In this document: in pieces, positions 38,678 through 42,489 of the stretch
How the letters are laid out: each line of letters opens with the position of its first letter
How positions within the stretch are numbered: position 1 is the first letter of the stretch
Origin: Kiloniellaceae bacterium
GTDB lineage: Bacteria; Pseudomonadota; Alphaproteobacteria; Kiloniellales; J153
Direction: 5' to 3'
NCBI GenBank assembly: GCA_046758005.1
Contig: JBHHZJ010000001.1
Location: 28,101 to 92,100, forward strand
Length of the DNA: 64,000 nucleotides
Program-made: the position numbers and the translations under genes
Notes under the pieces: generated by a model
Told to the model about the DNA's origin: nothing
The model's database searches: none
The model's input: the letters and a program-made list of their open reading frames with translations, nothing else

Positions 38678-39336
38678 CGGATGCGCGCCGCAAGCGCGTG
38701 GGCGTGATGATCTCCGGCCGTGGCAGCAACCTGCAGGCCCTGCTGGACGCCTGCGCCGATCCCGCCTACCCGGCGAAGATCGTGATTGTCATCTCGAACG
38801 AGCCGGAGGCCTACGGCCTCGCCCGGGCGGAAAAGGCGGGGGTGCCGACCCGCACGCTCCGGCACCGCGACTATGCGACGCGCGAGGCCTTCGACGCGGC
38901 CGTGACCGCCGTGCTGGAGGAGGCCGGGGTGGACCTGGTGTGCATGGCCGGGTTCATGCGCCTGGTCACCGAAGGCTTCGTCGCGCGCTGGACGGACCGC
39001 CTGATCAACATCCATCCGTCGCTCCTGCCGTCCTTCCGCGGGCTGGACACCCACGCGCGGGCGCTCGCCGCCGGGGCCAAGCTGCACGGCTGCACGGTCC
39101 ATTTCGTCCGCTTCGAGGTCGACCACGGGCCGATCATCGGTCAGGCGGCGGTGCCGGTCCTGCCCGGCGACACCGAGGCCAGCCTGGCCGCGCGCGTGCT
39201 CGAGGCCGAGCACCGACTCTATCCGCACTGCCTGCGGCTCGTCGCGGAGGGGCGCGTCCGCGTGGCCGGCGAGGTCGCGGAGATTACCGATCCGAACGCC
39301 AATCCCGGGGCGCGCCTGATCAACCCGGCGCCTTGA
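38674..39336 (+). CDS. purN: Phosphoribosylglycinamide formyltransferase
   Basis: [28 protein letters not shown]..., [21 protein letters not shown]...D.GPII. The ATG at 38674 overlaps the purM stop (ATGA). 220 aa. Confidence 0.95.
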
Positions 39337-39626
39337 CGCATCCATGCAGCGCCTTGAAATGACAATACAAAACGTGGCCATGCGCCGCACGCGCGACGGT
39401 GGCACCGGGCCCGGACCGCGCGGTGCGGGCCGCGGACTCCTCGATCACGGCAGGCCAAGGGGGGGATACGTGCCTGTCCAAGGGGAAAGCCGGCGGTTTC
39501 CGGCTTGTGGAAGGGAAATGGATGGTCTTCATGGTCCGGAGGGTCACACCGGCTCGCGGTTGTTGTAATTCGGATGGCGAATCCGCAAGATCGCGCTTGC
39601 ACACCGAGTCAAATGGGACATGTCCG

Positions 39627-40397
39627 ATGCAGAATGTTCACGTCGTCGGTAAGGGCGCGGCCTCCGGCGAGGCCGCCCAAACCGACCAAATCTTCGCCGA
39701 AACGGCCGAGCAAGGCGATTTTCGCTTCGGCAAGGAGACGGCCAAGGTCTTTGACGACATGGTCGGCCGCTCGGTGCCGTTCTACGACGAAATCCAACGG
39801 ATGACGTCGGAATTGGCCGGGACATTTGCGGTGAGCGGCTCCTATCTCTACGACCTCGGTTGCGCCACGGGGACAACGCTCGCGCTGCTCGACGGAACCG
39901 TCAACGACGGCGTGCACTTCGTCGGCGTGGACAACTCCGAGGAGATGCTGGCCCAGGCGCGCAAGAAGCTGGAGGCGCTGGGCGGCAAGAGGACCGTGGA
40001 TCTGGTGTTGGCCGACGTCAACGAGATGCCGGCCATGCAGCCGACATCGGTCGTGGTGATGAACCTGACCTTGCAGTTTGTGCGGCCACTGTATCGTGAG
40101 CGCGTGTTGGGCCAGATATTCGATGCGCTGTTGGAAAACGGCTGCCTGATCCTCGTCGAGAAACTGACGGTGAAGGATTCGCGCCTGAACCGCCTGTTCA
40201 TCGAGTATTACTACGACCTGAAACGGCGTAACGGCTATTCCGAAATCGAGATCGCGCGGAAGCGGGAGGCGCTCGAGAACGTCCTGATCCCGTACCGGCT
40301 GGAGGAGAACCTGCAACTCCTGGAGACCGCGGGCTTCAAGACGACCGAGATGTTTTTCCGCTGGTACAATTTCTGCGGTCTCCTGGCGGTGAAATAG
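39627..40397 (+). CDS. cmoA: Carboxy-S-adenosyl-L-methionine synthase CmoA-family protein
   Basis: 256 aa, colinear with E. coli CmoA: DFRFGKETAKVFDDMVGRSVPFYDEI (Ec [26 protein letters not shown]), YDLGCATG, VGVDNSEEM, VVMNLTLQFV, YYYDLKRRNGYSEIEIARKREALENVL (Ec [26 protein letters not shown]), and the C-terminal WYNFCGLLAVK (Ec CFNFGSLVALK). Confidence 0.85.
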   Translation: MQNVHVVGKGAASGEAAQTDQIFAETAEQGDFRFGKETAKVFDDMVGRSVPFYDEIQRMTSELAGTFAVSGSYLYDLGCATGTTLALLDGTVNDGVHFVGVDNSEEMLAQARKKLEALGGKRTVDLVLADVNEMPAMQPTSVVVMNLTLQFVRPLYRERVLGQIFDALLENGCLILVEKLTVKDSRLNRLFIEYYYDLKRRNGYSEIEIARKREALENVLIPYRLEENLQLLETAGFKTTEMFFRWYNFCGLLAVK

Positions 40398-40401
40398 ACG
40401 C

Positions 40402-41160
40402 ATGGCTGCCGAAACCCGCCCCGGGCCGCGCAAGCCCTTCACCATTCGCTGCGGCGACTGGCTGTTCAAATACCGCAACCTGGCGTTCACGGCGTTTCTG
40501 GCGGCGCTCTTCATCGGCTTCCGGCCGAGGCCGTTTCTGGGCGACCCGGGCGCGGACCATTGGCTCGACCTCGCGGGCATTCTGGTGGCGCTCGCCGGGT
40601 CGGCGTTCCGCTTCTGGGTCATCGGCCTCGCCTACATCAAGCGCGGTGGCGTCAATAAGAAAATCCATGCCGACAGGCTGGTCGTCTCGGGGATGTTCGG
40701 TGTCTGCCGTAATCCCCTCTACGTCGGGAACGCGCTGGTTCTCCTCGGCCTGTTCCTGATCCACAACAATCCCTGGGTCTACGCGATCGGCCTGTGCGTC
40801 TTTGGATTTTCCTATTGGAGCATGGTTGTCGCGGAGGAATGGTTCCTCGCGCAGAAGTTCGGCGACGAGTACGCGCGCTACTGCGCGGACGTGACCCGCT
40901 TTTGGCCCGACTTCTCGCGCTACTCACAGGCGGCGCGGGGTATGGTCTTCAATTGGCGTCGGTCGATTATCAAGGATTATTCCAGCATCGTTGCCTGGGT
41001 CGCGACGGTCGTCGCCTTGCTCACGTACGAGCGGGTTCTGTGGACCGGTGACACGGCCGAGGGATTTAGCATGGTTGTCCCCGGCGGCTTGCTTCTGCTT
41101 GCCGCAATTTTCCTCGTCACCGTAAGAGGTTTGAAAAAATCAGGCCTGCTCAAAGAGTAG
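40402..41160 (+). CDS. Integral-membrane methyltransferase of the ICMT / phospholipid-methyltransferase (PEMT) superfamily
   Basis: Starts 4 nt after the cmoA stop. 252 aa with at least 6 hydrophobic helices. Family motifs: LVVSGMFGVCRNPLYVGNALVLLG (canonical RHPxYxG with His replaced by Asn) and EEWFLAQKFGDEYARYCADVTRFWP (EE..L...FG..Y..Y...V.R..P). Confidence 0.75.
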   Translation: MAAETRPGPRKPFTIRCGDWLFKYRNLAFTAFLAALFIGFRPRPFLGDPGADHWLDLAGILVALAGSAFRFWVIGLAYIKRGGVNKKIHADRLVVSGMFGVCRNPLYVGNALVLLGLFLIHNNPWVYAIGLCVFGFSYWSMVVAEEWFLAQKFGDEYARYCADVTRFWPDFSRYSQAARGMVFNWRRSIIKDYSSIVAWVATVVALLTYERVLWTGDTAEGFSMVVPGGLLLLAAIFLVTVRGLKKSGLLKE

Positions 41161-41451
41161 CAAGACGTACGTCGCCGGAGACTCTGCGGCATTCGGCGCT
41201 CGTTCAAGCCGCGGCCGAAACGGACGACCCGGGCGCTCTTGGCCGACCGTCGTGACGCGGGTGTCCCTCGTGGGCGCAGGTCTTGCGCGGGTCCGCTTGC
41301 CTGCGACCATGACGACCGGCAAATCGGGACGGGCAGGCGCTGGGCGTCTGTCCCGTGCAGGGTGCGCCGCTCGCCCGGTTCGGCATGTCGCCGGGCGGAG
41401 CGAGACGCGGCCTCGCGTTCGCGCGAACCCGGCCGGGGGACCTAATCGGTC

Positions 41452-42153
41452 ATGTCGAGCGGCAGCTCCCGATCATCACAGCGCCGGTCGATCGTCGTCG
41501 GGGTCGTTGTCCTGGCCGGGATCGCGCTGGGGACCGCGCTGGCCCTGGTGGCGGTGTCGCTCGGCTGGGATTACGGCTTGGCGATGCAAGACGTCGAACG
41601 GACGATCCGGTCCTGGGGCGCCTTGGGGGTCGCCGCCGCCATCGGCTTGATGGTGGTCCATTCGTTCGTGCCCTTCCCGGCAGAGTTCCTCGCCATCGCC
41701 AACGGGATGCTGTACGGGCCGGTCTGGGGCACGGTCATCACCTGGACCGGCGCCATGCTCGGCGCGTTTCTCGCCTTCGGCCTGGCGCGCTGGCTCGGCC
41801 GACCGTTCGCGGAAATCGTGATCGCCAGGCGCAACTGGCACGCGATCGACGATTGGACTGCCGAGCGCGGCGCCTACGTGGTCCTGGTCAGCCGCCTCAT
41901 CCCGTTGATCGCGTTCAACCTGATCAACTACGCCGCAGGCCTAAGCCGCATATCCTGGTGGACCTTCGCCTGGACCACGGGGGTGGGCATCCTGCCGCTG
42001 ACCGTCCTCATGGTGGTCATGGGCCACAGCGTCCACACCCTGGGGTGGGAGTCGTGGGCGGCGCTGGTCGCCGGCGCGCTGGTGCTTTGGCTGGCGCTGC
42101 GCCGCCGGCTAAGGCCGCCGGGCGCCCGCAAGCCGGACAGCCTCCACCGATAA
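41452..42153 (+). CDS. TVP38/TMEM64 (DedA-related, SNARE-associated) family membrane protein
   Basis: VPFPAEFLAIANGMLYGPVWGTVITWTGAMLGAFLAFGLARWLGRPF...VLVSRLIPLIAFNLINYAAGLS is the family signature. Confidence 0.8.
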   Translation: MSSGSSRSSQRRSIVVGVVVLAGIALGTALALVAVSLGWDYGLAMQDVERTIRSWGALGVAAAIGLMVVHSFVPFPAEFLAIANGMLYGPVWGTVITWTGAMLGAFLAFGLARWLGRPFAEIVIARRNWHAIDDWTAERGAYVVLVSRLIPLIAFNLINYAAGLSRISWWTFAWTTGVGILPLTVLMVVMGHSVHTLGWESWAALVAGALVLWLALRRRLRPPGARKPDSLHR

Positions 42154-42290
42154 TTCGCATTGCGCGCGAGCCGCATGGACCCGCCCGCGCGGGCCGCAGC
42201 GCGGGCTTGCCCAAGCGCGACGGGATCGGGTAAGACATCGCCCGGACGTGGCCCCGCATGAGCGCCGGGGCACCTGCGGAGAGGGACGGG

Positions 42291-42413
42291 ATGGCCGAGA
42301 ACGAAATGCTCGAGGAACACCAGCGGACCTGGCACGGCTTCGTCAAGCTGTTGGTCTACTCGGTGGCGGCCGTCGTGCTCACCCTGATCCTGATGGCGGC
42401 GTTCCTGCTCTAG
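42291..42413 (+). CDS. Small (40 aa) single-pass membrane protein, aa3-type cytochrome oxidase subunit IV-like (PF07835-like)
   Basis: Not in the track. GGAGAGGGA, then 4 nt, then ATG at 42291. Product is MAENEMLEEHQRTWHGFVKLLVYSVAAVVLTLILMAAFLL*, with high GC3. It resembles the small alphaproteobacterial CoxIV-type peptides. The assignment is tentative. Confidence 0.45.
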   Translation: MAENEMLEEHQRTWHGFVKLLVYSVAAVVLTLILMAAFLL

Positions 42414-42489
42414 GAACGCGGCCCGCCAAGGCGAGTTTGCCGGCAGACGCGGCACTGCGTGTGAGCGCGGCCGAGCGCCAGTGGCCGGC

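Follow-up and report, generated by a model that had tools for sequence, protein, structure and literature searches.

A conserved gene pair of a predicted carboxy-SAM synthase and an ICMT-fold membrane transferase points to carboxymethylation at the bacterial membrane

A 64,000-nucleotide stretch of Kiloniellaceae bacterium contig JBHHZJ010000001.1 (positions 28,101 to 92,100 of the forward strand; "the window" below, whose own positions are used throughout) carries a gene for a homologue of CmoA, the synthase of carboxy-S-adenosyl-L-methionine (Cx-SAM), closely followed by a gene for an integral membrane protein with the fold of isoprenylcysteine carboxyl methyltransferase (ICMT) and phosphatidylethanolamine methyltransferase (PEMT). 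This pairing suggests that a carboxymethylation not described before takes place at the membrane. We think it probable that the two genes form a self-contained, horizontally mobile operon in which CmoA makes Cx-SAM and the membrane enzyme uses it to carboxymethylate a membrane-embedded or otherwise hydrophobic acceptor. An earlier note on this stretch had made the same central inference, that CmoA is coupled here to a membrane ICMT/PEMT-fold protein instead of CmoB, and it is now strongly supported by conserved adjacency, co-evolution, chorismate mutase fusions and operons with 3-deoxy-D-arabino-heptulosonate 7-phosphate (DAHP) synthase. The parts of the pair are as follows.

39627..40397, + strand: cmoA, predicted Cx-SAM synthase, 256 amino acids (TIGR00740; alignment with E. 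coli CmoA)
40263..40265, + strand: Arg213 codon, the equivalent of Arg199 of E. coli CmoA in the alignment
40402..41160, + strand: ICMT/PEMT-fold integral membrane transferase, 252 amino acids, six predicted transmembrane helices (PF04191); proposed Cx-SAM-dependent carboxymethyltransferase
40633..40668, + strand: basic Gly-rich loop Y78-IKRGGVNKKIH-89, family-specific and predicted to be cytoplasmic; candidate lid or anion-binding element
40708..40731, + strand: RNPLYVGN (residues 103-110), a variant of the ICMT/PEMT cofactor motif RHPxYxG
40834..40908, + strand: EEWFLAQKFGDEYARYCADVTRFWP (residues 145-169), which forms the C-terminal half of the cofactor-binding signature "RHPxY-hyd-EE"
40948..41157, + strand: C-terminal extension with an amphipathic FNWRRxxxKDY segment, two extra transmembrane helices and an LKKSG tail predicted to be cytoplasmic

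Re-reading the sequence placed both open reading frames (ORFs) on the plus strand at the coordinates given before: the cmoA stop codon TAG occupies 40395-40397, four nucleotides (acgc) follow, and the ATG of the membrane gene starts at 40402. The first ORF passes the TIGR00740 equivalog model with 229.3 bits (cutoff 193.3), protein residues 20-256 covering profile positions 2-239 of 239, and its alignment with E. coli CmoA, at 37-38% identity, runs over the full length, which confirms the colinearity that had been claimed. The crystal structure of E. coli CmoA defined the residues that contact the cofactor and showed the guanidinium of Arg199 in a salt bridge with the Cx-SAM carboxylate, a feature named as a hallmark of the family (PMC3663124). 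When the residues binding SAM and Cx-SAM were checked in the window protein, Arg199 and the contacts Y39, D62, G64, D89, N90, D117, N132, F137 and E164 (E. coli numbering) were all retained, and S66 was replaced by Ala. The Arg199 equivalent is present in 79 of 82 CmoAs linked to the module. By family assignment and by these residues, the ORF at 39627-40397 is a bona fide CmoA, with Cx-SAM synthase as its predicted activity.

The second ORF matches PF04191 (PEMT) at 44.1 bits (cutoff 25), and PF04140 gave no significant match to it. A profile search of PDB sequences returned the ICMT structures 5VG9 (E = 1.5e-9), 5V7P (3.5e-9) and 4A2N (5.3e-8), and the same three led the Foldseek results with probabilities of 1.00, 1.00 and 0.91 and modest template modelling (TM) scores of 0.29-0.38. 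A confident AlphaFold2 model built from 18 homologues (predicted local distance difference test, pLDDT, 87.5; predicted TM-score, pTM, 0.84) has six long helices. Two of these, at residues 185-215 and 225-247, agree with the two extra C-terminal helices that the earlier note had read from the sequence, and the aligned ICMT structures stop before them, at about residues 168-181. RNPLYVGN and EEWFLAQKFGDEYARYCADVTRFWP are present exactly as previously quoted, and the canonical His is indeed replaced by Asn. In the family, R, P, Y, G and EE of the cofactor motif are invariant, and the His is Asn in the window clade. The EEWFLAQKFGDEYARYCADVTRFWP segment aligns to EE...FG..Y of 5VG9 and 4A2N, with E145, E146, L149, F153, G154, C161 and R166 invariant in this region. 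NCBI lists a protein identical to that of the window in a metagenome-assembled genome placed in Kiloniellaceae (Alphaproteobacteria), the likely host.

Other conserved features are particular to this family. In the loop at 78-89, no family alignment, including one of 82 sequences, shows any variation at R81, G82 and G83; the loop has no counterpart in the aligned ICMT structures, and its pLDDT below 50 suggests that it is flexible. The C-terminal extension has invariant F183, W185, R187, K191 and K245. Common to all CmoA-linked members are R70, the loop Y-I-x-R-G-G-x-[ND]-K (78-86), N110, E145-E146, C161, R166, F-[ND]-W-[RK]-R and K245. R70 aligns with Arg173 of Tribolium ICMT, which we take to bind the substrate carboxylate. 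The shared invariant residues are candidates for recognizing the donor carboxylate or an anionic acceptor, and for the donor carboxylate the candidate binders among the invariant basic residues are R70, R81, R166, R187 and K191. Elsewhere, the basic residues placed for binding the donor carboxylate are Lys91/Arg315 in CmoB and a key Arg in CmoX.

Conservation of the pair was surveyed by scanning one genome per GTDB species with the membrane protein, which found a relative in at least 581 species genomes. The best 80 of these were examined for cmoA; 79 could be assessed and one had no room upstream. In 76 of the 79 the membrane gene is immediately preceded, on its own strand, by a CmoA homologue (73 of the full-scoring type and three divergent), at tblastn gaps of -22 to +231 nucleotides. 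The best 80 belong to the Alpha-, Beta- and Gammaproteobacteria, Myxococcota, Verrucomicrobiota, Planctomycetota, Nitrospirota, Gemmatimonadota, Acidobacteriota, Bacteroidota, Rhodothermota, Binatota, Hydrogenedentota, Krumholzibacteriota, Omnitrophota and Methylomirabilota. The module thus occurs in at least 14 phyla, all of them diderm lineages, and the pairing was also found in every metagenome contig looked up. The flanking genes are unrelated between lineages, and all-against-all clustering of the flank ORFs found no third conserved gene: the largest cluster groups generic two-component regulators of 12 loci, and the remaining clusters reflect synteny of close relatives. Pairwise identities of the CmoA and membrane proteins correlate (Mantel r = 0.575, a value reached in 0 of 999 permutations), showing that the two proteins co-evolve, as expected of genes inherited and transferred together. 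The adjacency on which the earlier note had built is thus kept across lineages with unrelated flanks and is supported as meaningful, not accidental.

The membrane protein family is large: when 1.84 billion representative proteins were searched with its profile, at least 375 clusters at 50% identity matched at E <= 1e-30. Cultured hosts include Ensifer, Rhizobium, Pedobacter, Dyadobacter, Haloferula and Gemmatirosa, and the pair sits on megaplasmids or chromids in cultured Rhizobium, Ensifer adhaerens, Sinorhizobium chiapasense and Gemmatirosa. On the 911-kb conjugative plasmid NZ_CP148093.1 of Rhizobium sp. T1470 (333693-346436), no other genes accompany it in a stretch of mobile elements that comprises group II intron maturases (three), a transposase of IS630, a reverse transcriptase and an IS21 element, and from this we conclude that the cassette is mobile and self-sufficient. 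Unusual architectures were also seen in the family. In one protein of 507 amino acids (P0243) two ICMT-like domains are fused in tandem, and their motifs differ, RNPMYVGN in the first domain and RHPLYVGN in the second. Another, of 442 amino acids (P0351), has one more hydrophobic segment, then a long linker rich in Ala, Lys and Pro, and ends in an OmpA-like domain of the peptidoglycan-binding kind, a fusion that hints at an envelope-related role.

The strongest new evidence placing the module in a Cx-SAM pathway is its link to prephenate supply. Chorismate mutase is the enzyme that forms prephenate, and five of the 150 best representatives of the membrane protein (P0303, P0325, P0329, P0331 and P0333) end in such an enzyme, a type II chorismate mutase domain (PF01817) that scores 56-66 bits (cutoff 27). 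In each the domain sits on the membrane protein and not on CmoA, an arrangement that is hard to explain unless the membrane protein works in the Cx-SAM pathway. Two of the fusion loci were looked up: in L094 the next gene passes TIGR00740 with 220 bits, and in L095/L096 it encodes a 255-amino-acid class I methyltransferase whose Pfam profile resembles that of CmoA, unscored on TIGR00740. Prephenate is the carboxyl donor that CmoA requires (PMC10491745, PMC12783734). The same supply is encoded next to the module in unfused form: a Gemmatimonadetes locus (L065) has four overlapping genes in the order DAHP synthase, chorismate mutase, cmoA and membrane gene; a Krumholzibacteriia locus (L044) has a bifunctional DAHP synthase/chorismate mutase gene before cmoA and the membrane gene; and in L071 such a bifunctional gene lies directly before the membrane gene, in the place of cmoA. 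All gene assignments at these three loci are above curated cutoffs. Dedicated DAHP synthase and chorismate mutase genes suggest substantial flux rather than a trace modification. The fusions also bear on topology. The chorismate mutase domain comes after the LKKSG tail, which fits a cytoplasmic C-terminus of the membrane protein, and the extra hydrophobic segment that precedes the OmpA-like periplasmic domain of P0351 agrees with the same orientation.

In E. coli, cmoB overlaps cmoA, and the two genes are co-conserved neighbors (PMC4482062); in the window, the slot directly after cmoA is taken by the membrane gene. A tblastn search with E. coli CmoB, confined to the 64-kb window and all ~90 flanks, found no CmoB. 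This agrees with the earlier note, which had seen no CmoB-like protein in the window, and the only window match was a weak Rossmann-fold hit inside cmoA itself (E = 8e-4). A partner that is not CmoB but has a membrane ICMT fold, together with the lack of CmoB in window and flanks, makes a tRNA acceptor very unlikely.

The earlier note had also suggested that the change of His to Asn in the cofactor motif accommodates the extra carboxylate of Cx-SAM, and this part did not survive. The RNP form is found in 83 of 84 loci and in 119 of 120 homologues of the window clade. The sole RHP locus among the 84, a Myxococcales gene (L011:2232-3017), has no adjacent cmoA and by itself had looked supportive. 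A search seeded with its protein, however, recovered a sister clade with canonical RHPLYVGN in 66 of 120 members, and two loci of this RHP clade (L086 and L089) have a true CmoA directly upstream, scoring 226 and 237 bits. Since the RHP sister clade is also CmoA-linked, we regard the substitution as a clade marker and not as a determinant of coupling to CmoA, and adaptation to Cx-SAM is ruled out as its explanation.

In the window, the pair occupies an insertion between host genes, with the following features.

39337..41451, no strand assigned: inserted islet of ~2.1 kb, a cassette of the two genes and their spacers and nothing else
39337..39626, + strand: 290-nucleotide spacer upstream of cmoA, GC 63.4%, where the cassette's own promoter is presumed to lie
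38701..39336, + strand: purN, left flank, host-like DNA outside the system (PF00551, 198 bits; GC 72.2%)
41452..42153, + strand: VTT/DedA-family membrane protein gene, right flank, a syntenic host gene outside the system (PF09335, 100 bits)

Two relatives (L099 and L100; purN 77-78% identical) share the window's gene order of CDP-alcohol phosphatidyltransferase, DUF2066, purM, purN, VTT/DedA, ndk and ABC-F but lack the pair, and in both the VTT gene comes directly after purN. Blastn homology to both ends at window position 39336, the purN stop, and picks up again at 41544. Because synteny in these relatives runs from purN to VTT and DNA homology is interrupted between them, the pair is an insertion of ~2.1 kb at 39337-41451, horizontally acquired. 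Composition agrees, so that the foreign islet after purN described in the earlier note stands on both grounds. The lower GC of the pair relative to purN was also correct, although the hand-counted 56-58% was slightly too low: cmoA measures 60.4% and the membrane gene 61.4%, with the lowest 300-nucleotide windows at 58%, against 72.2% in purN and 75.1% in purM. Overall the islet is at ~60-63% and its flanks at ~72%, and GC at third codon positions is 81-84% within the pair versus 90-94% for its neighbors. At 69 other loci the module averages only 2.6 GC points below its own flanks, so the deficit of ~10 points here is unusual and not intrinsic to the genes.

A search around the islet for hallmarks of mobile elements found short chance repeats only, with no tRNA, insertion sequence or integrase. 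The 290-nucleotide spacer has no Rfam match, no stable fold relative to shuffled sequences (z = +1.38) and no sigma-70-like site, and promoter- and terminator-like sites in it do not exceed expectation. A riboswitch or structured leader was considered for this spacer and rejected for lack of an Rfam match and of a fold better than shuffles. Between VTT/DedA and ndk, L099 and L100 have a called 40-amino-acid gene with the Pfam domain COX4_pro_2 (L099:7483-7605 and L100:7611-7733); the corresponding window interval is 42154-42489.

From these data we propose the following mechanism. Soluble cytoplasmic CmoA would convert SAM and prephenate to Cx-SAM, in some lineages fed by a dedicated chorismate mutase that is fused or co-operonic and may be accompanied by DAHP synthase. 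The translationally coupled downstream gene would yield a six-helix ICMT-fold enzyme of the inner membrane. When charges are distributed over the AlphaFold2 helices, the positive-inside rule would place the N-terminus, loop 77-104 (net +5), the EE segment and the LKKSG tail on the cytoplasmic side, so that both termini, the loop at 78-89 and the RNPxY...EE cofactor pocket are predicted to face the cytoplasm. The membrane enzyme would then bind Cx-SAM, filling the role that CmoB, TglF, MccB or CmoX has elsewhere, and pass its carboxymethyl group, an addition of +58 Da, to an acceptor that probably enters from the inner leaflet and offers O, N or S as the nucleophile. We rank as candidate acceptors first a membrane lipid of a common kind or a head group linked to lipid, then lipid A or another phosphorylated glycolipid, and then a small hydrophobic nucleophile; lipid A-type glycolipids are listed because the nearest characterized relative is LmtA. 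The narrower claim, that this would be the first integral-membrane ICMT-fold carboxymethyltransferase and would move the group from Cx-SAM onto a bulk membrane lipid or lipid A-type glycolipid, is a tentative one that we would not yet favor.

Several observations weigh against the proposed module as a whole. Three of the 79 assessable loci (L011, L041 and L071) carry the membrane gene without an adjacent cmoA, and in three others (L046, L083 and L084) the CmoA-like protein has no Arg aligned to Arg199, with an Arg one position later. The literature searches turned up no carboxymethylated bacterial membrane lipid. ICMT and PEMT are SAM-dependent, and every characterized enzyme among the nearest relatives (LmtA, ICMT and PEMT) uses plain SAM. 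This last point favors an explanation in which CmoA feeds a CmoB encoded elsewhere, for modification of tRNA U34 to 5-carboxymethoxyuridine (cmo5U), and the membrane protein is a SAM methyltransferase of a lipid, a lipid A phosphate or a thiol that shares nothing more than the operon. RefSeq reads the plasmid copies along these lines, labeling them "CmoA (tRNA modification)", with the gene name cmoA and a gene ontology term for tRNA modification, and "isoprenylcysteine carboxylmethyltransferase family protein". The cmoB search was confined to window and flanks, which leaves room for such a CmoB, and the canonical RHP in the CmoA-linked sister clade shows that the cofactor pocket is not visibly remodeled. 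Even so, adjacency by chance or for regulation is unlikely to last in 76 of 79 genomes and at least 14 phyla amid unrelated flanks, with start-stop overlaps and co-evolution. The pair also moves as a two-gene unit without cmoB, and none of its ~90 flanks has the gene that adjoins canonical cmoA (PMC4482062). Further, chorismate mutase is fused to the membrane protein and not to CmoA, and in L071 the DAHP synthase/chorismate mutase gene comes directly before the membrane gene. We therefore consider this explanation quite improbable.

Coupling through Cx-SAM could also be real with a different kind of acceptor, a small nucleophile able to cross membranes (a thiol, a phenol, an amine or a metalloid species, for instance), giving a soluble carboxymethyl product for detoxification, osmolyte production or signaling. 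Small-molecule enzymes of the ICMT fold do exist in the MddA family (NCBIfam NF045656), the module is accessory, patchy and plasmid-borne in soil, rhizosphere and aquatic bacteria, it has no consistently linked lipid-biosynthesis gene, and the high flux suggested by dedicated DAHP synthase and chorismate mutase would suit such a product. The window protein, however, gave no match to the MddA model at E <= 0.01, although that model was in the searched library, and its best characterized relative is a lipid A enzyme. With its two added conserved transmembrane helices and its amphipathic FNWRR segment, the protein seems to offer an extended surface for binding within the membrane, and lipid or envelope genes (a ketoacyl synthase, a FabA/ApeI-like dehydratase and ArnT-like glycosyltransferases) occasionally lie nearby. 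A small acceptor thus seems unlikely, if less so than a plain SAM methyltransferase. Very improbable, in our judgment, is that the membrane protein serves as an anchor or scaffold, a sensor or a transporter component that recruits CmoA and chorismate mutase, or that the product of the CmoA paralogue is some other SAM derivative that depends on prephenate. A chorismate mutase fusion would also fit a scaffold, and the activity of this CmoA clade is a prediction, the window protein scoring 168 bits on the enterobacterial CmoA model NF011995 (cutoff 285). Yet the ICMT-fold signature (R..P.Y.G.N and EE..L...FG..Y) is invariant, as for an active enzyme, and the CmoA keeps the Cx-SAM contacts described above, S66 apart. 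A carboxymethyltransferase acting on a membrane-embedded or hydrophobic acceptor remains the reading we prefer.

Variation around the module was recorded at a number of loci. The three divergent CmoA-like genes lie upstream of the membrane gene in Pseudoxanthomonas spadix (L046:5227-5944), Massilia (L083:5227-5971) and Ramlibacter (L084:5215-5989); their products are ~30% identical to the window CmoA, and the first scores 143 bits on TIGR00740, under the cutoff. A recent transfer is suggested for L046 and L083, where the GC of the module lies 12-16 points under that of its flanks. Five loci have a second, shorter ICMT-like paralogue (~211-267 amino acids) directly beside the pair (L017:1577-2213, L019:6771-7416, L036:6685-7345, L039:1914-2550 and L023:3819-4623). 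Its motif is of the RNPLY type (RNPLYVGS, RNPLYFFS or RNPLYLGN), and its NCBIfam matches are weak, to LmtA, ICMT and MddA, the last marginal at 19 bits in some loci. CmoM methyl-esterifies the carboxylate of cmo5U, and by analogy the paralogue could alkylate the product once more, perhaps by turning the new carboxylate into its methyl ester.

Among genes with a lipid or envelope connection, a FabA/ApeI-like dehydratase follows cmoA in L095 (3118-3867), two Binatia contigs have a gene for a FabF-like ketoacyl synthase after the membrane gene (L086:5849-7099 and L089:5856-7106), and ArnT/PMT_2-type glycosyltransferases lie within 1.5 kb at four loci from different phyla (L018, L038, L051 and L090). 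These neighbors are too few for a pattern but may hint at the acceptor. At one further locus (L004:7388-9636) the module adjoins an ergothioneine biosynthesis pair, EgtD-like (Methyltransf_33) and EgtB-like (DinB_2/FGE-sulfatase), probably by coincidence.

The author of the earlier note had known of no system of this kind. Our literature search, which took in Cx-SAM papers since 2019, CmoA papers since 2021 and a joint search, with subscription-only literature outside its scope, likewise found no paper linking CmoA or Cx-SAM to ICMT, PEMT, Ste14 or a membrane enzyme. To our knowledge, Cx-SAM is among very few natural SAM analogues, with known uses in making tRNA cmo5U and two natural products derived from peptides, to which phage DNA was added in 2025. 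If our proposal is correct, Cx-SAM chemistry reaches the membrane, and there would be a +58 Da modification of lipids or hydrophobic metabolites that current lipidomics leaves unannotated. The narrower claim of a bulk-lipid or lipid A-type acceptor, if true, would add an unrecognized class of acidic or zwitterionic bacterial lipids and the first use of Cx-SAM outside nucleic-acid and peptide chemistry. Thousands of database entries named "tRNA modification CmoA" or "isoprenylcysteine carboxylmethyltransferase family protein" would be reassigned, and bio-alkylation engineering would gain a natural ICMT-fold scaffold that takes an enlarged donor. The two-gene cassette occurs in culturable, genetically tractable hosts, which makes the hypothesis directly testable.

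Among known systems, CmoA-CmoB of E. coli is alike in using the same CmoA family and in being a two-cistron, start-stop-coupled operon with the presumed Cx-SAM consumer right after cmoA. The partner differs, CmoB being a soluble Rossmann-fold protein with a CmoB N-domain and the window protein an integral membrane protein of the ICMT fold. A CmoA homologue also works with a non-CmoB transferase in TglE/TglF (3-thiaglutamate) and in MccS with MccB's C-terminal domain (microcin C-like compounds), where the acceptors are a peptide thiol and a peptidyl-cytidylate (PMC10491745), and in phage CmoA/CmoX, which makes 5-carboxymethylcytosine with DNA cytosine as acceptor (PMC12783734). In all three the CmoA homologue adjoins its dedicated transferase, as it does in the window at a spacing of four nucleotides, so the adjacency to a Cx-SAM synthase that marks known carboxymethyltransferases is found here too. 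TglF, MccB's C-terminal domain and CmoX, however, are soluble class I (Rossmann) enzymes, the fold of the known Cx-SAM-dependent carboxymethyltransferases, and belong to specialized clusters or phages, whereas the window protein is polytopic with the ICMT fold and its module consists of two genes only, spread over at least 14 phyla.

On the side of the membrane enzymes, the best-scoring characterized family is LmtA, the Leptospira lipid A 1-phosphate O-methyltransferase (TIGR04571, 74.8 bits, E = 8e-21, residues 18-210 aligned). LmtA has a similar length (252) and a membrane ICMT-like fold, and it acts on an inner-membrane glycolipid. It uses SAM, though, with no CmoA partner reported, and the window protein falls far under the TIGR04571 cutoff of 325, which indicates that it is not an LmtA orthologue. 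With ICMT/Ste14 and PEMT (PF04140/PF04191) the window protein shares the fold, the "RHPxY-hyd-EE" cofactor signature and the alignment of R70 with Arg173; it differs in the Asn for His, the invariant basic loop YIKRGGxNKK, the two extra C-terminal transmembrane helices and the linkage to CmoA and prephenate supply. MddA, which methylates methanethiol on sulfur, is another bacterial membrane enzyme of the ICMT superfamily and shows that the fold can serve small molecules. What is known, then, is the theme of a Cx-SAM synthase with its transferase, and what is new is the membrane fold, the cellular location and presumably the class of acceptor.

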